Part shown: in pieces, positions 32,302 to 43,584 of the stretch
Numbering within the stretch: the first letter of the stretch is position 1
Layout of the letters: each line of letters begins with the position of its first letter
Virus record (IMG/VR): IMGVR_UViG_2609460125_000009
Origin: a virus
Taxonomy: Duplodnaviria; Heunggongvirae; Uroviricota; Caudoviricetes
Length of the DNA: 64,000 nt
Reading direction: 5' to 3' (one strand)
Program-made: the position numbers and the translations under genes
Notes under the pieces: model-generated
What the model saw: the letters and a program-made list of their open reading frames with translations, nothing else
Database searches by the model: none
What the model was told of the DNA's origin: nothing

Positions 32302-33091
32302 TAAAGCAATCCCTGAGCTTGGCTCTGACGTTATGCAGCAAATCTATCTCTGCGCCATAAATCGCTACCCTAATGAAGCGTGTGGCTTTCTGGTTAGAAC
32401 TAATGGCGACAAATATCGCTTTATGGAAGCGCGGAATGTTTCGGAGAACCCGCAGAACACTTTTGTAATGCACGTTGACGACATTATGGCGGCAGAGGAT
32501 GCGGGTGATGTTATCGCAATCTGGCATTCACATACTGATGAATCAGCAGAAGCATCTGATGCCGATCGTGCAGGCTGCGAAGCGACGGAAGTTCCGTGGA
32601 TGATTCTGGCTATTCGCAAGAATGTTGAGGGAGATGCCCCTTTCCATTTTAGCGAGATGAATGTGATCACACCTGATGGTTTCGAAATGCCATACCTGGG
32701 CAGACCGTATGTATTTGGCGTATTCGATTGCTGGATGTTGTGTCGGGACTATTTGAAGCGTGAGTTTAACGTCGAACTAAACCCGAACGCACACCTGCAT
32801 ATTCCATCGTGGTACACCGGCGATAACGACATTCTCGATCAGAACTACCGTAACGAGGGATTGGTGCGTCTTGCGCCCGGAACAGAGCCTCAACGTGGGG
32901 ACATCTTCTTTATCCAATACGGGAAAATGCCTGACCACTGCGCGGTTTATATCGGCGATGGAATGATTCTTCATCACCAGATCGACCGCCTAAGTTGTCG
33001 TGCTTATTACGGCGGGATGTATCAGAAACATACGACGCATCACTTGCGTCACAGAGACTTGCTCAAGGGAGATGAGACGTGTCTGAGTTAG
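32294..33091 (+). CDS. tail assembly protein (lambda K-like; MPN/JAB + NlpC/P60-like)
   Basis: JAMM-like H-x-H motif (AIWHSHTDE); C-terminal Cys/His region; start overlaps the L stop. Confidence 0.7.
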   Translation: MGNKAIPELGSDVMQQIYLCAINRYPNEACGFLVRTNGDKYRFMEARNVSENPQNTFVMHVDDIMAAEDAGDVIAIWHSHTDESAEASDADRAGCEATEVPWMILAIRKNVEGDAPFHFSEMNVITPDGFEMPYLGRPYVFGVFDCWMLCRDYLKREFNVELNPNAHLHIPSWYTGDNDILDQNYRNEGLVRLAPGTEPQRGDIFFIQYGKMPDHCAVYIGDGMILHHQIDRLSCRAYYGGMYQKHTTHHLRHRDLLKGDETCLS

Positions 33092-33669
33092 TTCATGTGC
33101 AGCTTGGCGGCCCTATGGCCAAACATTTTGGCCGCCACTGGCATCTAAAGGTGCGTAATACAAAACAGGCTCTGGATTTAATTGAGGCCAACAAGCCTGG
33201 GTTTAAAGCATGGATGAAGCGCAATATCAAAACCTATGACAGATACCACATCCAGATCACCAATAAACAGGGCCACAAGTGGTCTGTGGACGAGAGTGAA
33301 TATCAGATGATGGGGCAGTCTGACAATATTGCAAAAATCCGCATTACCCCTGTTCCGCGAGGAAGTGGTGGATCTGCTTTTGGATGGTTTCAGACGGTTG
33401 TTGGAGCAGTATTAATGGTTGCCTCGATATGGGTGCCCGCTCTTGCGCCTCTCGGTTTGTCACTGATGATGGGCGGTATAGCACAAATCATATCTCCGCA
33501 AGCCACTAACGAAAGTGTGAGGCAGGCGGATAACTCGAACTCTTATTACTTTGATGGACCTCAAAACACAACAAACCAGGGGAACCCTGTACAGCTTATC
33601 TATGGCGAGGAAATTTTAGTTGGCTCACAGGTCGTGAGTTCTTCTATCACCATCGACCAGCTTATGTAA
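33079..33669 (+). CDS. tail assembly protein (lambda I-like)
   Basis: Position; C-terminal hydrophobic segment. Confidence 0.65.
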   Translation: MSELVHVQLGGPMAKHFGRHWHLKVRNTKQALDLIEANKPGFKAWMKRNIKTYDRYHIQITNKQGHKWSVDESEYQMMGQSDNIAKIRITPVPRGSGGSAFGWFQTVVGAVLMVASIWVPALAPLGLSLMMGGIAQIISPQATNESVRQADNSNSYYFDGPQNTTNQGNPVQLIYGEEILVGSQVVSSSITIDQLM

Positions 33670-33680
33670 TCAAGGATTTT

Positions 33681-36600
33681 TTGGACATGGAACAGTTCAA
33701 GAAGAAAAAATTACCGCTTCTTATTGCCGGTGCTGGTGGCAAGAAAAGTAAAAGCTCCAGCCGTACCCCGGTTGAAGCTGATGATACTGTCAATTCTCGT
33801 GCTATGGCAGCCATCCTCGACCTTCTTGGCGAGGGGGTTATCGGTGGCCTGGTAAATGGCGCAAAGTCGATCTTCATCGACGATTTACCGATCTTGAATG
33901 AAGATGGCTCTTCCAACTTCAGCGGTATTACATGGGATTTTCGTGACGGCTCACAAGATCAGACGCCAATGGCTGGTTTTGATTTTGTCGAAACGCCTAA
34001 GTCCGTAAATATTCAGCTTAAAAAAACACACGACGTTACGGTTTCAATCGATAACGATGAAGCTGATCGCGTTCGTGTCATCATGAAATTCCCCTCTTTA
34101 CGTAGCGTTGATAAAAGCTCTGGCGATACAAATGGCACTACGGTGAAGTACAAATTCCAGATCGCCAACGCAGACGCAACATTTTCTGATGTAGTGGCAG
34201 AAGGTGAGAAAAGCGTTGATATCACGCTAACGGCAAAGAAAACCGGCGTGTATTACCGTAGCTATGAGCTGAAACTGCCTAAGCCTGGTCGTGCATACAA
34301 GGTTAGGGTGATTCGTCTTACAGATGATAATAGTAGCCAGTACCTCTACAACGACACATGGGTTGATTCCATCGGTGAGATTGTCGACACGCCAATGAAC
34401 TACCCTAACTCTGCTCTTGTTGGCTTGAAGGTCAATTCAGAGCAGTTTGGTAGCACAATGCCTTCCCGTTCGTATTTGGTGCGCGGTATCAAAATCCGAG
34501 TACCGTCAAACTACAACGAATACACCAATACTTATGTCGGCGTATGGGACGGTACTTTTAAGCTGTTGTCTTCTTCAAACCCTGCGTGGATTCTCTACGA
34601 TTTGCTTACCAATACTCGGTATGGTCTTGGGCAATTTGTGTCGGAATCCATGATTGACCTCGGCCAGCTCTACCAGATTGGTCGATATTGTGACGAAGAG
34701 GTCGATGATGGCTTTGGGGGTAAAGAGAAACGCTTTGCAATCAATACGCAGATCACCAGTCGACAAGACGCATACCGATTAATTCAGGATATTGCCGGTG
34801 CATTCCGCGGCATGGTGTTTTGGGCTGGTGGCATGGTTAACATCATGCAGGATAGCCCATCAGATCCGGTAATGATGTTTACCAACTCCAACGTCAAAGA
34901 TGGACTGTTTACCTATAAAGGTTCTGCGCGTAAAGATCGCCCATCCGTTGCGCTCGTAACCTACAACAACAAGGAGGACGGTTATAAGCAAAACATCGAA
35001 TACGTTGAAGATCAGGACGCAATGCGCCGTTATGGTGAGCGTAAAACAGAAGTCGTAGCATTTGGATGTACAAGCCGAGGCCAGGCTCACCGAGTTGGTT
35101 TGTGGCTTTTGTATACCGCCAGAATGGAGTCGGATGTAATTACATTTACTGCCGGCTTAGACGCCTCATTTCTGATGCCTGGTGAAACCGTTCTGATTCA
35201 GAACAAATATCGTGCAGGTAAACGTAACTCCGGTCGAATTGTGGAGTTTACCAAAAACAGCATCACTCTCGATGCGCCTGTGTCGTTAGCTAAAAGTGGC
35301 AGCTTTATTCGGATATTGAATCAGGAAGGCAAAATCGTTGAACGCGATGTTCTTGAAACTGGCGAAAACATAACAAAGGTTACGTTTTCAAAAGCCCTGT
35401 CGTCAGCGGAAACGCCTGTTTTGAACGGTGTCTGGACAATTACAGAACCAGATCTCGAACCTATGCGCGTTCGCATCGTTAACATCGCGCAGGGGGAAAC
35501 GCCGGGTAGCTTTGACATCACCGCTGTTGAGAACAATCCGTCTAAATATGAGGCAATCGACAATGGCGCAACGCTGATCCCGCAGAATACGACGGTATTG
35601 GACCCAACTTACTCCAAGCCATCTAATCTGCAAATCACTGAAGGGACTTATCTCTCAAGCCCGGGCAACCTGTCAGTAAAACTGACTGCAACATGGGAAG
35701 GAAAATCTCCAGAGTATTGGATCAGTTGGCGACGTTCTGATGAAAACAATGTATCGAACTGGCAATCGGCGCGTGTAACCGAAGAGCAATACGAAATCGT
35801 TAATGTCGCGGAGAATGGACACTACGACTTCCAACTGTATGCGGTTTCATTCAACGGTAAAAAAACAGAGATTATCAGTACCGTTTATCAGGTGTTGGGC
35901 ACAATGACACCGCCGGATGCCCCAACGTCATTAACGGCCGTTGGAGACTATCGTAATGTGATACTGAATTGGGTTAATCCAGATTCGGTAGACCTTGATC
36001 ACATTAATGTTTACGCATCCCAGACCAACAATCTGGATACGGCGAAACTGATCGCAGAGTCTGCAAGCACCACCTTTACACATGCTGGTCTTGGGGATAG
36101 CGAAACGTGGTATTACTGGGTTCGAGCATCGAACAAGCGAGGTATGTTAAGCCCTCCGAACTCAAACTTGGGTACAGAGGCGACAACTCGCGATGTACTG
36201 TCGTTCCTGGCTGGCAAAATTACATCTTCCGAGCTTGGTCAGGCTCTGCTTGAGGACATCAACAGCAAAGCCTCTCAAGAAGCAGTTGACGAGTTAAATG
36301 AGCATATCAACCAGAGCGTCGAATCTTTGGAGGGGGCGGTAAACGACGTTAAGGAAGATATAGCTGAATTAGATAAGCAGTTCAGCGATAACCTCGCGGA
36401 TTTTGAAATAAAATTCAACGAGCGTAGCGATGCTTTGGAGAGCGCGCAAACCGAGCTTAAAGGTGAGGTTTCGGCAACGATCGACAAGGTCAATGAAGCG
36501 TTTGAAAAAATTGATGCTACTGATGCTGCAATTGTTGAAATCGAAAACACCGTATCTGAACACGATAAAGCTCTCGCTAATACAGTCGAGGCAATAAAGG

Positions 36601-38411
36601 CTGCAAGAGATGAAGCGGCGGCTCTTATTGCTAAGGAAAGCGAGGCTCGTGTTGAAGGCGATGCTGCAAACGCTAAACAACTGGAAGTGTTGCAGTCAAC
36701 GGTAGAGGAAAGCTCCGCTGCCGTTGAAGAAATGAAAAAGACGGTTGCAGAGGTCGATCGTGCCAGTGCAGAACTGACTACGAACATTGAGGCGTTAGCC
36801 AAAACAAATATTGACCTGGCTCTTCGTCAAGATGAAGACCAGCACAAGCAGATGGTCAATAACGCGAAGATCGCAACAACACAGAAAACCTTTGCTGATG
36901 ATATGTCTGCAATGGCCACGAAGGTTGAGGAAATTCGCGTAGAAATTGGCGAAGACATTAAGGCCAGTATTCTGGAAGAGTCCACCGCTCGTGCCGATGG
37001 CGATGAAGCGTTGGCAAAGCGTGTCACTCAGCTGCAATCTAAGTTTGAAGGAGATATCAGCGCGGCGATTAGTACAGAGCAGGAGGCTCGCACATCTGCC
37101 GATGAAGCTCTGACGACACAGATCACTCAGCTTGAGTCGAAAGTAAGCAACGATATCGTCGCAGCTATTAAGGAAGAGCAAGAAGCCCGAGCAACGGAAG
37201 ATTCGGCTCTGGCAAGCCAGATCACCCAACTTCAGGCAAAGGTTGATGATGATATTTCTGCTGCAATACGTAGTGAGCAGGAGGCCCGAGCAAGCGGGGA
37301 CTCTGCGTTAGCCAAACAAATAAACCAGCTTCAGTCAAAGGTTGACGGTGATATATCCGCGGCCATCACTCAGGAGCAGGAGGCCAGAGCAAGTGCTGAC
37401 CAGGCGCTCTCACGAGAAATTAACAGCCTGCGAGCACAAACCGGAACTGATATTGCCGCAGCGGTTGCTGTAGAGACAAAAGCAAGGACTGATGCCGATA
37501 GTGCATTGTCTACCCAGATTACGTCTCTTACAGCAAAAGCTAATGATCTCGAGGCGTCTCTTGCCAGAGAAACAACGGCTCGTGCAGATGGTGATACCGC
37601 TTTAACAAAAGAGGTTTCAAGTTTAAAAGCACAGACAGCGAAAGATATTAGTGCGGCCGTTGCAGTTGAAACGCAGGCTCGAACTGATGCTGACTCGGCG
37701 TTGTCGTCTCAGATCACCAAGCTGACCTCTCAATACAAAGAGGATATTAAAGCGGCTGTAGCAACCGAAACGAAAACGCGTACAGAGCAAGATGCTGCAT
37801 TGGCGACTCAAATCACAAACTTAGAGTCTCAAACGGCAGCCAACATTTCCGCGGCGGTAACAACTGAAACGACAGCGAGAACGCAGGCAGATAATGCTCT
37901 GAGTGGGCGAATCGATACTCTGAAAGCAGAGGTGGATGGAAATACCGCGACAATTCAACAGCAGGCAACAGCTATTGCTGATACCAACAAAAAAGTGTCA
38001 ACCGCGTGGACGTTGAAAATGGAAACTTCAACGAGCGGAGGGCAGAAGTATGTTGCCGGTATTGCGCTTGGTATTGACACCACTGGGCTATCTCAGTTTT
38101 TGGTTCAGGCGGACAGGTTTGGTTTGGTCAACTCTGTTAACGGGAAGATCACAACGCCATTTGTTATCGAAAACAGTATCGCCTATATGAATGGAGCGTA
38201 TATCAAGGATGGCACAATCACCAATGCAAAAGTAGGCGATCTGCAATCTACCAATTTTGTTAGCGGTAGATCTGGATGGCGGTTCGGCAAAAATGGAACG
38301 CTTGAGATCAACGGTAATAGCGGGGGTAATGGGCGACTGGTCATAAATGGTCAGCGGATTGACGTTTATGACGATAACAACGTCCTACGAGTAAGAATTG
38401 GCCTTCTGTAA
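33681..38411 (+). CDS. central tail fibre / host specificity protein (lambda J-like) with a long inserted repeat region
   Basis: Recalled J-like blocks (…NYPNSALVGLKVNSEQFGS…, …GVWDGTFK…, …CDEEVDDGFGG…EKRF…); 1576 aa. Confidence 0.85.
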   Translation: MDMEQFKKKKLPLLIAGAGGKKSKSSSRTPVEADDTVNSRAMAAILDLLGEGVIGGLVNGAKSIFIDDLPILNEDGSSNFSGITWDFRDGSQDQTPMAGFDFVETPKSVNIQLKKTHDVTVSIDNDEADRVRVIMKFPSLRSVDKSSGDTNGTTVKYKFQIANADATFSDVVAEGEKSVDITLTAKKTGVYYRSYELKLPKPGRAYKVRVIRLTDDNSSQYLYNDTWVDSIGEIVDTPMNYPNSALVGLKVNSEQFGSTMPSRSYLVRGIKIRVPSNYNEYTNTYVGVWDGTFKLLSSSNPAWILYDLLTNTRYGLGQFVSESMIDLGQLYQIGRYCDEEVDDGFGGKEKRFAINTQITSRQDAYRLIQDIAGAFRGMVFWAGGMVNIMQDSPSDPVMMFTNSNVKDGLFTYKGSARKDRPSVALVTYNNKEDGYKQNIEYVEDQDAMRRYGERKTEVVAFGCTSRGQAHRVGLWLLYTARMESDVITFTAGLDASFLMPGETVLIQNKYRAGKRNSGRIVEFTKNSITLDAPVSLAKSGSFIRILNQEGKIVERDVLETGENITKVTFSKALSSAETPVLNGVWTITEPDLEPMRVRIVNIAQGETPGSFDITAVENNPSKYEAIDNGATLIPQNTTVLDPTYSKPSNLQITEGTYLSSPGNLSVKLTATWEGKSPEYWISWRRSDENNVSNWQSARVTEEQYEIVNVAENGHYDFQLYAVSFNGKKTEIISTVYQVLGTMTPPDAPTSLTAVGDYRNVILNWVNPDSVDLDHINVYASQTNNLDTAKLIAESASTTFTHAGLGDSETWYYWVRASNKRGMLSPPNSNLGTEATTRDVLSFLAGKITSSELGQALLEDINSKASQEAVDELNEHINQSVESLEGAVNDVKEDIAELDKQFSDNLADFEIKFNERSDALESAQTELKGEVSATIDKVNEAFEKIDATDAAIVEIENTVSEHDKALANTVEAIKAARDEAAALIAKESEARVEGDAANAKQLEVLQSTVEESSAAVEEMKKTVAEVDRASAELTTNIEALAKTNIDLALRQDEDQHKQMVNNAKIATTQKTFADDMSAMATKVEEIRVEIGEDIKASILEESTARADGDEALAKRVTQLQSKFEGDISAAISTEQEARTSADEALTTQITQLESKVSNDIVAAIKEEQEARATEDSALASQITQLQAKVDDDISAAIRSEQEARASGDSALAKQINQLQSKVDGDISAAITQEQEARASADQALSREINSLRAQTGTDIAAAVAVETKARTDADSALSTQITSLTAKANDLEASLARETTARADGDTALTKEVSSLKAQTAKDISAAVAVETQARTDADSALSSQITKLTSQYKEDIKAAVATETKTRTEQDAALATQITNLESQTAANISAAVTTETTARTQADNALSGRIDTLKAEVDGNTATIQQQATAIADTNKKVSTAWTLKMETSTSGGQKYVAGIALGIDTTGLSQFLVQADRFGLVNSVNGKITTPFVIENSIAYMNGAYIKDGTITNAKVGDLQSTNFVSGRSGWRFGKNGTLEINGNSGGNGRLVINGQRIDVYDDNNVLRVRIGLL
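36950..37930 (+). repeat. about 15 tandem 63-bp coding repeats inside the J-like gene
   Basis: 21-aa unit of the form ITQLQSKVxxDISAAIxxEQEARxxADxALA. Confidence 0.75.
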
Positions 38412-38441
38412 TGTAGAAAAAAATATTTATATCGGTAAAAA

Positions 38442-38460
38442 TAAGTAGGTACATACTTAG
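38442..38460. promoter_or_regulatory. motif family 2 site TAAGTAGGTACATACTTAG
   Basis: Inverted repeat ~45 bp upstream of the tail fibre gene. Confidence 0.45.
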
Positions 38461-38503
38461 TGGTGGGCAAGGATAGCCCACCAAATCAAGGAGCATATTC
38501 AAC

Positions 38504-41500
38504 ATGTGGTACAGGGAAGGTACTATCACATTTACACAGGGCAGCAATACTCTGGTTGGGGCAGGGACAGCCTGGAACGTAACAGCTAATGGTGTGTTGC
38601 CGGGGATGATCGTCATTGGCCCCGACAATAAGCTGTATGAGATCAAGCGCGTAACCAGTGATACGAACATTGTTCTCTCAGAACCTTATACCGGCGAAAC
38701 TCAGTCTGAAGTTCCGTGCCGAATCATTACGACCTATGAAGGCGACTTAACACAGTTTAGCGCGCGCTTTACAGCACTAATGTCGCGTATGTCGGCTGAT
38801 TCCAAGTCCATGCGCAGTTGGTTGACTGCTCTGGATGAGGTGACAATCGAGCGTGAAGACGGTACAGAAGTGACCGTTAAGCCGCTAATGCAGATCGTCA
38901 ACGAGCACAACGAAAACGTTGAGTGGTATAAAAATAACACTGACGCGATTGATGCTGCTGGCGACAAAGCTCGTGAGGCGGCGGCCAGTGCTGCCGCAGC
39001 AGCAGAAAGCGCCAATATCGCTGGAGAAAAAGCCTCTCAAGCGTCTCAAAGTGCATCCGCTGCAGAGTCCTCAAAAAGCGCGGCGGCCACAAGTGCCGGT
39101 GCCGCGAAAACGTCTGAAACGAATGCTGCAGCGTCACAAAAATCTGCAGCCACTTCTGCATCCACCGCGACCACGAAGGCGTCAGAAGCTGCCACCTCAG
39201 CCCGGGATGCGGCGGCCTCAAAAGAGGCAGCGAAATCATCAGAAACGAGCGCAGCCTCGAGCGCCAGTAATGCCGCTTCCTCGGCAACGGCGGCAGGAAA
39301 TTCCGCGAAGGCGGCAAAAACGTCCGAGACGAACGCCAGGTCTTCTGAAACGGCAGCGGGACAGAGCGCCTCGGCTGCGGCAGGCTCAAAAACAGCGGCT
39401 GCGTCGTCTGCCAGTGCCGCGTCAACAAGTGCCGGGCAGGCCTCAGCCAGTGCCACCGCCGCCGGAAAATCGGCAGAAAGTGCCGCATCGTCTGCTTCAA
39501 CAGCCACAACGAAGGCTGGCGAAGCCACTGAACAGGCCAGCGCAGCAGCGAGGTCTGCTTCCGCAGCGAAGACATCCGAAACGAACGCGAAAGCGTCGGA
39601 AACCCGTGCAGAATCCTCAAAAACGGCAGCCGCATCGTCCGCCAGTTCGGCAGCGTCATCGGCATCATCTGCGTCTGCTTCAAAAGATGAGGCGACCAGA
39701 CAGGCGTCAGCAGCGAAGGGCAGCGCCACGACGGCATCCACGAAAGCAACAGAGGCGGCAGGCAGTGCGACGGCAGCATCTCAGAGCAAAACTGCTGCTG
39801 AATCCGCTGCGACCCGTGCGGAAGCTGCTGCTGATCGTGCTGAAGAGATTGCCGGTGCAGTTGCGATGGAAGACGCAAGCCTTACAACTAAAGGTGTTGT
39901 GAAACTTAGCAGTGCTGTCGACAGCACCAGTGAATCGCTGGCCGCAACGCCAAAAGCAGTTAAAGTAGTCAATGACAATGCGAACAGCAGGGTGCCATCT
40001 AACCGAAAAATTAACGGGAAAGCACTGACTGCGGATATCACATTAACGCCGAAAGATATTGGTACTTTAAATTCAATAACGATGTCTTTCTCTGGCGGGG
40101 CCGGGTGGTTCAAACTGGCTACTGTTACAATGCCACAAGCGAGTTCCATCGTTTACATCGCATTGATTGGTGGCGCTGGTTACAACGTCGGCTCCCCACA
40201 TCAGGCAGGCATTTCAGAACTGGTTCTACGAGCAGGCAATGGAAACCCCAAAGGGATTACAGGTGCTTTGTGGAAGCGTACAGCTGTCGGATTAACGAAT
40301 TTCGCCTGGATCAACACATCCGGCGATACATATGATATTTACGTTGAGATTGGCAATTATGCGACTCGTGTAAATATCCATTGGGATTGTACTGCAAATG
40401 CGACAGTTTCTATTTATACATCGCCAACATATTCAGCTAGTAAGCCTTCCAGCGTTACCGATGGTGTTGTTTATACGATGTATAGCACACATCAGAAACC
40501 GACGCCGTTAGATATTGGAGCACTGCCAACAACCGGAGGAACAGTTTCAGGTCCGTTGTCTGTTACTGGTGGGATCACCGGAACATTAAATGGTAATGCA
40601 AGTACAGCAACGAAATTGCAGACGGCAAGATCTATCGGTGGAGTTGGTTTCGACGGTTCTGCAAATATCAACCTTCCAGGTGTAAATACTACGGGTAATC
40701 AGAACACCACTGGTAATGCTGCAACTGCTACAAAACTTCAGACGGCAAGAACTATCGGCGGCGTGAGCTTTGATGGTACTGCGAATATTAATTTGCCAGG
40801 TGTTAATACGACTGGTAATCAGAATACAACGGGCAACGCGGCTACTGCTACGAAGTTGCAGACTGCGCGTACTATCAATGGGGTGTCGTTTGACGGCTCG
40901 GCAAATATTTCCTTGTCGCCAGCAAATATAGGTTGCCCGGCATCTCCTACTGGTTGGTTAACTACAGGAAGTAATGGCGGAGCAATAACAACAGCACAGT
41001 TAGTGACGTTATTGCAAAATAATGGAGCATTTAACACAAAGTCATGGATTGCTCGATGTGCTTGGGCCTATGCCAATAGTGCAACCATACCAAATAGTGA
41101 AACTGGTTGTGGCGTTATTCCATTGGCAGGAGCTGTTATAGAGGTATTTAATAACGGTAGTAGCTCAAACAATTATACGATCCGTATAACAACGGCCACA
41201 ACGACGAGTGTCTCTGGTGCTCTCACTAATGCGGAGTTTATCTATGTATTTAATGGCACAGATTATTCTCCGGGATGGCGAAGAGTATATAACACGAAAA
41301 ACAAACCAACAGCCTCTGATGTCGGTGCATTACCTCTTACCGGTGGTACATTATCTGGAGGTTTGACATCTTCTGGCGAGATCATTTCAAAATATGCAAA
41401 TGGTTTCCGCATTGCTTACGGTAGCTTTGGGTTCTTTATCCGTAATGATGGATCGAACACATATTTCATGCTAACAGCATCAGGAGACACATTAGGTTCA

Positions 41501-42661
41501 TGGAACGGTTTGCGACCAATTACAATTAATAATACCAGCGGTGCTGTATCAATTGGTAATGGACTAAATGTGACTGGTGGCGTAAATGGTAGTTTGAACG
41601 GTAATGCTTCAACAGCTACGAAGTTGCAAACAGCGAGAAACATCAATGGTGTTAAGTTTGATGGCTCAGGCGATATCAACATTAATACATTGGTATCTCG
41701 TGGCCGAGTTACGGCGTTAAGCGGCTCTACTCAAGGCACTGCTGGCATTCAAATGTACGAGGCGTACAACAATAGCTACCCGACCACGTATGGCAACGTA
41801 TTGCACATGAAAGGTGCGAGTGCTGCTGGTGAGGGCGAGTTGCTTATTGGCTGGAGTGGTACGAGCGGTGCACATGCGCCAGTTTTCATTCGCTCACGAA
41901 GAGATACCACAGATGCGGCATGGTCAGCGTGGGCGCAGGTATATACTGCTAAGGATTCAATCCCTGGTGTGAATACAACCGGTAATCAGAATACTACTGG
42001 TAATGCCGCAACAGCCACAAAATTGCAGACAGCAAGGAAAATTGCTGGTGTGGCGTTTGATGGCTCTGCCGATATTACTTTGACTGCGGCTAACCTTAAT
42101 GCTTATACGAAAACAGAGGTAACAAACCTTCTAAGTTCCTATGCAAGCAGATCATCACTGACAGGCTATAGTGGCAACCTGGATATTATTGCTGAAACAC
42201 TGGTTGTCAAATCAGGCGGTAGTGGAGGGTTTGCTATATGGGATATTGGCACAACTACTAGCGGTGCCAATATGTACATTGATCCAAACCCTGGTATCAA
42301 TACAGTTTGGCGTTCAACATCTTCAAGGCGCTATAAAAAGGATATTGAAACATTACAAGATCGATATGCTGATGAACTTTTGTCATTAAGACCTGTTTGG
42401 TATCGTTCAATTTGTCGAGGTGACCGAAAGGATTGGGGGTATTACGGCCTTATTGCTGAAGAGGTTGGTGAGATTGCCCCGCAATATGTCCATTGGCGTG
42501 AACCAACAAATAATGATTCTCCAGAAGATATTTCCTCAAATGGTATGGTCGCTGAAGGGGTGATGTATGAGCGTTTGGTTGTACCACTCATTCATCATAT
42601 TCAGCAATTGACCAAAAGGGTTGAGGAGCTTGAAACGAAGTTAAATTCACCTAAAGAATAA
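38504..42661 (+). CDS. side tail fibre with C-terminal intramolecular chaperone (peptidase S74-like) domain
   Basis: Ala/Ser-rich low-complexity region, five GNAATATKLQTAR-containing repeats, C-terminal chaperone-like block (…YGLIAEEV…). Confidence 0.8.
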   Translation: MWYREGTITFTQGSNTLVGAGTAWNVTANGVLPGMIVIGPDNKLYEIKRVTSDTNIVLSEPYTGETQSEVPCRIITTYEGDLTQFSARFTALMSRMSADSKSMRSWLTALDEVTIEREDGTEVTVKPLMQIVNEHNENVEWYKNNTDAIDAAGDKAREAAASAAAAAESANIAGEKASQASQSASAAESSKSAAATSAGAAKTSETNAAASQKSAATSASTATTKASEAATSARDAAASKEAAKSSETSAASSASNAASSATAAGNSAKAAKTSETNARSSETAAGQSASAAAGSKTAAASSASAASTSAGQASASATAAGKSAESAASSASTATTKAGEATEQASAAARSASAAKTSETNAKASETRAESSKTAAASSASSAASSASSASASKDEATRQASAAKGSATTASTKATEAAGSATAASQSKTAAESAATRAEAAADRAEEIAGAVAMEDASLTTKGVVKLSSAVDSTSESLAATPKAVKVVNDNANSRVPSNRKINGKALTADITLTPKDIGTLNSITMSFSGGAGWFKLATVTMPQASSIVYIALIGGAGYNVGSPHQAGISELVLRAGNGNPKGITGALWKRTAVGLTNFAWINTSGDTYDIYVEIGNYATRVNIHWDCTANATVSIYTSPTYSASKPSSVTDGVVYTMYSTHQKPTPLDIGALPTTGGTVSGPLSVTGGITGTLNGNASTATKLQTARSIGGVGFDGSANINLPGVNTTGNQNTTGNAATATKLQTARTIGGVSFDGTANINLPGVNTTGNQNTTGNAATATKLQTARTINGVSFDGSANISLSPANIGCPASPTGWLTTGSNGGAITTAQLVTLLQNNGAFNTKSWIARCAWAYANSATIPNSETGCGVIPLAGAVIEVFNNGSSSNNYTIRITTATTTSVSGALTNAEFIYVFNGTDYSPGWRRVYNTKNKPTASDVGALPLTGGTLSGGLTSSGEIISKYANGFRIAYGSFGFFIRNDGSNTYFMLTASGDTLGSWNGLRPITINNTSGAVSIGNGLNVTGGVNGSLNGNASTATKLQTARNINGVKFDGSGDININTLVSRGRVTALSGSTQGTAGIQMYEAYNNSYPTTYGNVLHMKGASAAGEGELLIGWSGTSGAHAPVFIRSRRDTTDAAWSAWAQVYTAKDSIPGVNTTGNQNTTGNAATATKLQTARKIAGVAFDGSADITLTAANLNAYTKTEVTNLLSSYASRSSLTGYSGNLDIIAETLVVKSGGSGGFAIWDIGTTTSGANMYIDPNPGINTVWRSTSSRRYKKDIETLQDRYADELLSLRPVWYRSICRGDRKDWGYYGLIAEEVGEIAPQYVHWREPTNNDSPEDISSNGMVAEGVMYERLVVPLIHHIQQLTKRVEELETKLNSPKE

Positions 42662-42721
42662 ACAACTTCAATCGGGGCTGGAACTAAACCAGCCCCTGCT
42701 TAAAAGTATAAGGATATATTT

Positions 42722-42976
42722 ATGAGCTATGGTGCACAGGTATGGTCGCCATCAAGACAGGAGATGGTCGATGCGTTGGCCCCTGTTTATTACCTCGATT
42801 ATTTTACTCCCTCTGGTTCTGGAAGTAGAACATATGAGGTTGAGGCGGGATTGGGAATCGACTATTACATAATGGACGTAACCAATGGGAAATACACAAG
42901 TCTTACGGTTTCTGGAAATACCATTTCATGGTCTGGAGCTAGTGGCAATTTAAACATATTGGTTTTTCAAAAATAA
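42722..42976 (+). CDS. hypothetical protein downstream of the tail fibre
   Basis: 84-aa ORF. Confidence 0.4.
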   Translation: MSYGAQVWSPSRQEMVDALAPVYYLDYFTPSGSGSRTYEVEAGLGIDYYIMDVTNGKYTSLTVSGNTISWSGASGNLNILVFQK

Positions 42977-43584
42977 TGTACGGAAGCAAGATATATCGAT
43001 CTGACGGGAAGGTCTGGATGTCTCCTTCTTTGTCTCCTATCGTCTTTCAGAGAAAGCAGGTTGTTTCTTTGTCTGGCGGGACAGAGTTTAACACCCAAAT
43101 ATCTCCAGATCGTTCACCGATGATTTTTGTTGCCTATTCGAAAGCTGTTTCATTAATAGCCAACAGAATAGTGCGTAACAACCAGGTGATTTACAGTTTC
43201 GGAGGTCAGGGTAGCGACTCTAGTGCCACGATATACGTATTTTCGAAAGGTATAGCCAAAAAAGAAACTTGGGGCATGAGTTTTTTCAATGCACAAGGGG
43301 AGGAAATCTATAATACGGCAAATATCCCACTTTCATTTACCTTTCTTAATAATACGGAGTGGAACAGCTCTGGAGGGCATGTTTTTGATTACCCACCAGC
43401 GATAATCCCAACATATGCGAATGTGTTCGCTGTTCCAGTACCGGGCGGAGCCATGACAATGGTTTATGGATATGCGGCATATGGAAATACTGTTAGCTCG
43501 ATATTCGTAAACCAACTTAATGGCGGCCATAGTTTTAGCGTAAATGGCAGAGTACCGGTAATAAATAGAAATCTGTATAACTGA
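42976..43584 (+). CDS. hypothetical protein
   Basis: 202-aa ORF overlapping the upstream stop. Confidence 0.45.
   Translation: MYGSKIYRSDGKVWMSPSLSPIVFQRKQVVSLSGGTEFNTQISPDRSPMIFVAYSKAVSLIANRIVRNNQVIYSFGGQGSDSSATIYVFSKGIAKKETWGMSFFNAQGEEIYNTANIPLSFTFLNNTEWNSSGGHVFDYPPAIIPTYANVFAVPVPGGAMTMVYGYAAYGNTVSSIFVNQLNGGHSFSVNGRVPVINRNLYN

Follow-up and report, generated by a model that had tools for sequence, protein, structure and literature searches.

The 64,000-nucleotide window analysed here (IMG/VR virus record IMGVR_UViG_2609460125_000009, Caudoviricetes) carries a gene for a central tail fibre, the product of which contains ten tandem units, nine of them 33 amino acids (aa) long. Judged by its sequence, the host gene of this array encodes the J-type central tail fibre (J) of an SSU5-like E. 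coli phage-plasmid, and the array expands a shaft which all J-type proteins possess. The firm part of the analysis is that a protein-level structural repeat lengthens the J shaft, and is changed by rare insertions and deletions (indels) of whole units. The features of the gene are as follows.

33687-38411, plus strand: J-type central tail fibre gene, 1574 aa from ATG (MEQFKKKK...)
33687-36188, plus strand: hub and probable FNIII domains (aa 1-834; Pfam), aligning to lambda J 3-837 and T1 gp33 7-853
36189-36947, plus strand: predicted proximal non-repeat α-helical shaft (aa 835-1087; AlphaFold2 helix, heptad-like hydrophobic period)
36621-36701, plus strand: degenerate isolated 'unit 0' (aa 979-1005), 13.1 bits with the unit hidden Markov model (HMM), 82 aa upstream of the array
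36948-37934, plus strand: array of ten tandem 99-bp/33-aa units (aa 1088-1416; lag scan and unit HMM)
36948, 37047, 37146, 37245, 37344, 37443, 37542, 37638, 37737 and 37836, plus strand: starts of units 1 to 10
37542-37637, plus strand: irregular unit 7 (32 aa, NDLEASLARE...), one residue short, giving a register skip
37935-38408, plus strand: C-terminal β-prism ('central straight fibre', Phage_Tail_Tip; PF09327, AlphaFold2 and Foldseek)

The J-type fibre gene and its tandem array

The initial annotation of this DNA, which was made from the sequence alone, had read the product as a J-like central tail fibre, and this is borne out by Pfam, by PHROGs (phrog_31, 'central tail fiber J') and by matches to lambda, T1 and F2 pyocin structures. 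The Pfam families are FNIII-A_GpJ (PF24801, 103.5 bits), Phage-tail_3 (PF13550, 117.4 bits) and Phage_Tail_Tip (PF09327, 141.9 bits, E = 1.5e-41), with match spans before the shaft at aa 103-237, 359-522 and 746-825. Over the first ~860 residues, the PDB sequence matches are lambda gpJ (8iyk), T1 gp33 (9l9p) and F2 pyocin (25vf), and the phmmer match to lambda J (8iyk) has E = 1.7e-127 across residues 20-860. The Pfam fn3 score is 24.4 bits against a cut-off of 25, and the lambda J and T1 gp33 alignments cross the FNIII region to about residue 860. The whole gene has 95% DNA identity to Escherichia phages Cyrano and CMS-2020a (108-kb SSU5-like phage-plasmids), and its product has 97.5% aa identity to the Cyrano 'tail host specificity protein J'. 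Open reading frames (ORFs) with Pfam matches to Phage_tail_L (L-like) and NlpC/P60+JAB (K-like) lie upstream of J, and the gene order in the Cyrano record is TMP-M-L-K-I-J-fibre-lysis. The ORF list puts the J start at TTG 33681, while relatives begin the gene at ATG 33687.

At the other end of the protein, PF09327 corresponds to the β-prism of the lambda 'central straight fibre', by both sequence and structure matches (PMC11101478). The AlphaFold2 model of the J C-terminus is β-rich, and Foldseek matched it to the lambda central fibre (8xcj/8xci, probability 1.00) and SU10 (7z4b). The PF09327 match stops at residue 1558 of 1576 in the longer TTG-start form, and a lambda-type C-terminal receptor-binding domain beyond the prism is not present in the window J, as judged by Pfam and by the protein end. 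Since J ends ~18 aa after the prism domain, it is without a receptor-binding domain of its own, and by analogy with T1 and F pyocins the receptor binder would have to sit outside J.

The array was found where the initial annotation had placed it (36950-37930), but with a different period. In-register DNA identity over 36950-37930 falls from 0.534 at lag 99 to 0.476 at lag 198 and 0.425 at lag 297, and the best lag over 300 codon shuffles reached a maximum of 0.363. The 63-bp (21-aa) period proposed at first gives 0.257 at lag 63 and 0.284 at lag 126, both of which are background. The actual period is 99 bp or 33 aa (protein-level identity at lag 33, 0.47), and in place of about 15 units of 21 aa there are ten head-to-tail units, all of 33 aa except unit 7 with 32 aa, each scoring 47-58 bits with the unit HMM and together covering 329 aa. 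The claim that J is longer than classic J-type proteins because of the repeats holds in part: J exceeds lambda J by ~440 aa (1574 versus 1132), of which the array supplies 329 aa, the remaining difference being due to a longer non-repeat shaft, offset by the absent lambda C-terminal receptor-binding domain. The term 'inserted', which had been applied to the array, is misleading for an expanded shaft, and lengthening of the helical shaft by a 33-aa repeat is a widespread, essentially ordinary feature.

At the DNA level, the units are too divergent for the array to be called by Tandem Repeats Finder at a minimum score of 30, and only lag statistics and the protein sequence reveal the repeat. They are 40-63% identical to one another (mean 52%; adjacent units, mean 57% and maximum 63%), the longest in-register exact run common to two units is 12 nt (units 4 and 5), and identical residues in different units use the same codon at a frequency of 34.9%, against 34.6% expected from codon usage. 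Saturated synonymous sites and low DNA identity indicate that the duplications are old and leave little substrate for slippage, and the array is thus an old protein-level repeat rather than a slippage-prone DNA repeat. These values argue against the reading of the array as a DNA contingency locus, in which slippage or unequal recombination would frequently alter the unit number and generate length or host-range variants within populations. The J of one related locus (L055, aa 1234-1331) points in the same direction, with three adjacent units that are 94-100% identical in protein and only 72-74% identical in DNA, a pattern suggesting either that the protein is strongly constrained while synonymous sites drift freely, or that selection acts against neighbouring units being identical in DNA.

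A search with Rfam at gathering thresholds over 33000-43000, both strands, gave no match. Minus-strand ORFs across the array (e.g. 36795-37229) are unsupported and lie inside a well-conserved coding gene, and were taken as spurious with no dedicated test.

Unit number among relatives

Unit number was counted in IMG/VR, GTDB and plasmid loci; a homologue search with the C-terminal 574 aa gave proteins of at most ~1000 aa, many of them fragments, and was not used for the counts. As the initial annotation had anticipated in proposing that repeat number be compared across relatives, the number of units differs among them, ranging from 3 to 10 in the SSU5 group.

Window type: 10 units, contiguous array
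AH02 lineage: 9 units
O104:H4-type plasmid: 10 units
2014C-3307 type: 9 units
Y. pestis pMT1: 6 units
Salmonella phage SSU5 and Kluyvera: 5 units
Photorhabdus: 6 units
Other IMG/VR contigs: 3, 4, 7 and 9 units
37299-37397, plus strand: 99-nt stretch missing in the AH02, AH04 and CT01 plasmids (a single gap in the MAFFT alignment), in frame and fusing units 4 and 5

Close relatives are nearly uniform. A megablast search with the 3' half of the J gene found ~165 E. coli plasmids at ≥97% identity; among the matches listed, full-coverage records have an equal span, save for one 1-nt difference, one IS1 insertion (NZ_CP020118.1, 41389-44274, in the 3' half of J) and the AH02-type plasmids. Of 167 E. 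coli genomes with this J type, 164 gave the full-length, 10-unit form in a junction-specific query, and ten units are likewise present in every one of the 24 close IMG/VR copies. Copy-number polymorphism among these near-identical genomes is thus confined to the remaining three of the 167 (AH02, AH04 and CT01), which differ by one unit and belong to one plasmid lineage. Together with the divergence of the units, this uniformity runs counter to the initial view that the repeats readily expand and contract at the DNA level.

The 9-unit deletion allele is carried by NZ_CP081702.1 (L001), NZ_CP081707.1 and NZ_CP081792.1, near-identical 94.8-kb plasmids which are 13-18 kb below typical members (107-114 kb). 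Given this size, they may be phage-plasmids undergoing decay, for which loss of the unit is neutral; the shortened lineage is perhaps no longer a working phage, which speaks against a contingency locus. A second, independent exact 99-nt indel distinguishes the O104:H4 type from the 2014C-3307 type at units 3/4. The two exact, in-frame 99-nt indels, the position of the AH02 deletion next to the 12-nt run that is the longest common to any two units, and the range of 3 to 10 units among relatives are what would favour a contingency locus. Array length nevertheless changes only by rare, exact one-unit indels; high-frequency variation is largely excluded, and the contingency reading is regarded as very improbable.

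The changes in number are internal: the last unit type is kept in 15 of 15 relatives examined and the first type is usually kept. Unit 7 is a distinct, fast-evolving unit type, the most divergent in O104:H4-type arrays, and is retained in all 9- and 10-unit arrays. A weak unit equivalent to 'unit 0' occurs at the same relative place in the SSU5, pMT1 and O104:H4-type J. The hub is 88-96% identical among enterobacterial SSU5-group relatives, and the tip prism is 92-96% identical in SSU5 and the E. coli types including O104:H4 (73% in pMT1), while the proximal shaft is ~60-64% identical in the O104:H4-type, SSU5 and pMT1 J and the array 33-69%. On these identities, J is a mosaic in which both ends are conserved and the middle is variable.

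This distribution would suit a passive spacer, in which the shaft is a trimeric coiled coil that never refolds and only sets the distance from tail tip to prism. The unit number follows lineage (9-10 in the E. coli types, 5 in SSU5 and Kluyvera, 6 in pMT1 and 6 in Photorhabdus), and within J sequence divergence is greatest in the shaft and array, against 88-96% identity of hub and tip among enterobacterial relatives. Such a spacer could carry the prism past O-antigen or capsule, or give the fibre a length that suits the side fibre, with the unit number adapted to the host surface. Unit number had no obvious relation to the length of the downstream fibre gene in the handful of annotated relatives.

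Other J proteins depart from the window type outside the array. The pMT1 J (L007:3025-7656, 1543 aa) has ~135 residues past the prism without a Pfam match, unlike the window J, which are possibly a receptor-binding module of its own. Giant J proteins occur in related E. coli and Klebsiella-type phage-plasmids, for example one of 3662 aa (L005:2481-13469; NZ_CP062852.1, 35480-46468), and also in L060-L084, with others exceeding 3000 aa. Hub and prism tip are conserved in these, and none of the 33-aa units was found in the giant J of either the E. coli or the Klebsiella type (>3000 aa). From proximal shaft to tip, the giant J has over 2000 aa instead; this region includes an ILEI-like domain and repeats with a period of ~240 aa (identity of 0.24 at lag 246 for aa 2200-2900).

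Structure and possible refolding of the shaft

An AlphaFold2 monomer model of aa 820-1100 is helical at 835-1045 and 1052-1099, interrupted briefly at 1046-1051. Another monomer model, of aa 1040-1574 (103-sequence alignment), gave helix at 1042-1285 and 1305-1406 followed by β structure from aa 1411, with a block-mean predicted local distance difference test (pLDDT) of ~72-93 across most of the helix and lower values beside the break. J is thus predicted to contain an α-helical shaft of ~570 residues between the FNIII domains and the β-prism tip, with the array as its distal part. The hydrophobic period of the array is 3.65 residues (11/3, hendecads), with no power at 3.5, while that of the proximal shaft (aa 858-1087) peaks at 3.55 and is heptad-like. 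The coiled-coil-like character that the initial annotation had ascribed to the units agrees with both the period and the predicted helix, structure prediction being the check that it had suggested. At 0.15 nm per residue, the unit would measure ~4.9 nm, the array ~49 nm and the whole shaft ~85 nm; each unit would therefore add ~4.9 nm, and how far the fibre reaches would depend on the number of units. Coiled coils built of hendecads form almost straight rods, and like the helical prediction and the hendecad period this supports a passive spacer.

The sequence of the units is constrained beyond the helical period. An alignment of 161 distinct units, drawn from the window gene and from 90 related loci, has E11 and R15 in every unit and D19 in 96%. 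Small residues occupy positions 6, 14, 21, 23 and 31 in ≥99%, and Ala, Thr or Val is found at position 16. Leu, Ile, Val, Met or Phe stands at positions 4, 8, 26 and 29 in 99-100%, and position 22 is aliphatic in 92%. Within the ten units of the window array, the invariant residues are A6, E11, R15, D19, A21, L22 and L29.

This pattern resembles a published fold-switch signature. In the F7 pyocin, a 163-residue coiled coil of the central fibre refolds to a β-prism on cell contact, as reported in a 2026 preprint by He et al. (PMC12874032). The F7 strands each carry the motif SxSxxMxxLxS read along the strand, a Glu or Asp at M pairs with an Arg at +/-4, Ala-to-Gln substitution at S positions abolishes killing, and comparable switches have been predicted for siphophage fibres of diverse kinds (PMC12874032). 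All ten units of the window array contain this motif twice, once reversed (A6-x-I8-xx-E11-xx-A14-x-A16) and once forward (A21-x-S23-xx-I26-xx-L29-x-A31), the two copies being set apart by Asp/Gly/Asn-rich stretches. A regular expression for the motif gave 27 matches in the array, versus 5.8 +/- 2.4 (maximum 16) in 2000 shuffles. The pairing of an acidic M residue with Arg at +/-4 is satisfied by E11/R15 in 161 of 161 distinct units. The register of unit to F7 motif was derived from the published F7 residue numbers (A987/A995, E1039/R1043), and in this register the M and L motif positions lie on the 11/3 core and the S positions off it, matching the coiled-coil state of the preprint (PMC12874032). 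As read from sequence, the candidate signature has small residues at six positions (6, 14, 16, 21, 23 and 31), Leu/Ile at two (8 and 29) and 'middle' residues at two more (11 and 26), together with the Glu11-Arg15 pair.

Since every unit carries this signature, the likeliest reading, in which about even confidence is placed, is that the array would be a metastable coiled coil of the F7 pyocin kind that refolds on receptor engagement. A spring function is likely by likeness to the F7 pyocin. In the proposed mechanism, the tail tip is closed by the FNIII domains, from which the shaft would lead to the distal β-prism, and engagement of the receptor would cause the array to refold onto the pre-existing β-prism, as in the F7 pyocin. 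Refolding would shorten the fibre and release the FNIII plug, so that the tail opens. Each unit would give one antiparallel strand pair, and both stroke and stored energy would be determined by the number of units.

A more specific form of this proposal treats the 33-residue unit as a quantal block of a fold-switching spring, contributing one β-hairpin layer each, with the copy number tuning stroke and energy and the fibre shortening by ~40 nm. The unit is pseudo-palindromic by residue class (S-L-M-S-S, turn, S-S-M-L-S), and either strand direction would therefore be possible. This form is put forward tentatively and is held to be somewhat doubtful. If true, a spring of 329 residues, against 163 in the F7 pyocin, would be twice the length of the only one observed so far, and its copy number would run from 3 to 10 in SSU5-group phage-plasmids and exceed 20 in some other J-like proteins.

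Several points weigh against a metastable coiled coil. The AlphaFold2 runs gave the helical state only, the β state being predicted in none of them; monomer models are unable to show a trimeric prism, and both helical models are neutral on the β state. The array is twice the length of the F7 switching segment and has a register skip at unit 7, and a figure legend of the preprint has five to six strands, which may not fit two per 33-aa unit (PMC12874032). The motif residues (Ala, Leu, Ile, Glu and Arg) also suit a plain coiled coil. Lambda and T5 function without an extensive switch, which also favours a passive spacer, and the mechanism is accordingly not universal among J-type fibres (PMC12874032). 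The passive spacer stays a strong rival, with an appreciable though less than even probability. Such a spacer, however, does not require strictly small residues at six sites of each unit (99-100% at five of the six), or an invariant Glu11/Arg15/Asp19 ladder, across 161 distinct units. The constrained positions are exactly those that the F7 work found necessary for the β state, and conservation of the last unit, which adjoins the prism, extends to the F2 pyocin.

The AlphaFold2 helix break at aa 1286-1304 falls in unit 7, with pLDDT below 50 in part, and unit 7 may be a hinge or docking point in the modelled shaft. This bears on a further reading, compatible with the others, in which the shaft or its irregular points would serve as a docking platform that anchors the large side fibre encoded just downstream of J (38504-42661, 1385 aa), in the manner of F2/F7 pyocin side fibres, which are held at a shaft kink. 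The side fibres of the F2 pyocin bind its shaft at a kink (PMC13455828), the predicted J helix is interrupted at aa 1046-1051 and at the 32-aa unit 7, and J is without its own receptor-binding domain beyond the prism. On the other side, a pyocin-like side fibre was sought downstream and no PDB sequence match to pyocin side-fibre chains was found; the fibre resembles Mu/P1 S fibres and T4 gp34. The side fibres of lambda attach via the tube collar and not via J (PMC12617516), and helix breaks in monomer models may be artefacts. A docking role is thus considered rather unlikely.

The side-fibre gene has repeats of its own at 40603-40909 (2.2-2.5 copies of a 120-bp, 40-aa tandem repeat, 74-75% identity), and it encodes a trimerisation domain of the T4 gp34 type as well as an S74 intramolecular chaperone domain at the C-terminus. 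It is followed at 42722-43584 by two small ORFs, assigned to phrog_557 'outer membrane protein' and phrog_425 'membrane associated protein' (moron category). In Cyrano, the lysis genes come after the fibre gene.

The meaning of the array depends on which reading holds. If the shaft is a spacer only, the result is routine annotation of a modular coiled coil in which the unit number sets the reach of the tail tip. If the units refold, the SSU5 group, in which arrays of 3, 4, 5, 6, 7, 9 and 10 units are flanked by a hub and a tip that are both conserved, would be a natural series for asking how force, stroke and infectivity in non-contractile tails depend on the length of such a fold-switching coiled coil. 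SSU5-group phage-plasmids are common in Enterobacteriaceae, including Y. pestis pMT1.

Comparison with known systems

The window J resembles lambda gpJ in its gene position (M-L-K-I-J), in its hub, probable FNIII domains and β-prism, and in the helical segment, a trimer in lambda, between FNIII-2 and the prism. The α-helical shaft of lambda gpJ (~residues 809-861) and its central straight fibre have been described structurally (PDB 8xck/8xci/8xcj; PMC11101478), and upon LamB binding both shaft and prism rearrange, with part of the shaft converted to β strands (PMC11101478). The lambda shaft is ~50 residues long without tandem units, whereas that of the window J is ~570, of which 329 lie in the ten units. 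The lambda J also extends into a 160-aa receptor-binding domain, whereas the window J stops ~18 aa after the prism domain.

The F-type pyocin central fibre is similar to the window J in having a long coiled-coil shaft directly before the prism and no receptor-binding domain, and the F7 pyocin shares with the window array the SxSxxMxxLxS motif and the Glu-Arg i/i+4 pair. The F2 pyocin shaft is a three-stranded coiled coil (PDB 25vf; PMC13455828). F2 pyocin residues 882-1193 align to J aa 1239-1546 with 84.1 bits, and the unit profile matches F2 pyocin 1033-1060 (E = 2.8e-4), T1 gp33 and, weakly, DEV gp56. By these alignments, the array is homologous to the shaft of T1 gp33 and to that of the F2 pyocin central fibre. 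The pyocin switching segment has 163 residues, and only the last unit is clearly recognised by the unit profile (F2). The window J, by contrast, has ten regular units (329 aa) and a 250-aa heptad-like proximal shaft, and belongs to the virion of a phage-plasmid rather than a tailocin. The literature on hendecads in tail fibres yielded nothing on the present 33-aa repeat, and the text of the F7 preprint is without the words repeat, heptad or hendecad (PMC12874032).

The J-like proteins of Drexlerviridae, such as T1 gp33 (PDB 9l9p), share with the window J a J-type protein ending in the prism and 33-aa tandem units in the shaft (DDIQASLTDIREVIATETEALSREIDQLKAQIG repeated). T1 gp33 has about three units and is ~30% identical overall to the window J; its C-terminal 350 residues are unresolved, and AlphaFold3 predicted a length of ~37 nm (PMC11945409). 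More widely, the unit profile, made from the ten units of the array, matched 1871 clusters (50% identity) at E ≤ 1e-3 among 1.84 billion representative proteins, and can serve as a simple finder of such shafts. Up to 31 stretches were matched per protein, placing ten units in the middle of the range; a 2138-aa protein (P0121), for example, has 22 units and the full J architecture (PF24801, PF13550 and PF09327). Many other carriers are without the J hub and represent other fibre types, in which the unit is also ~32-33 aa long and arranged in tandem.

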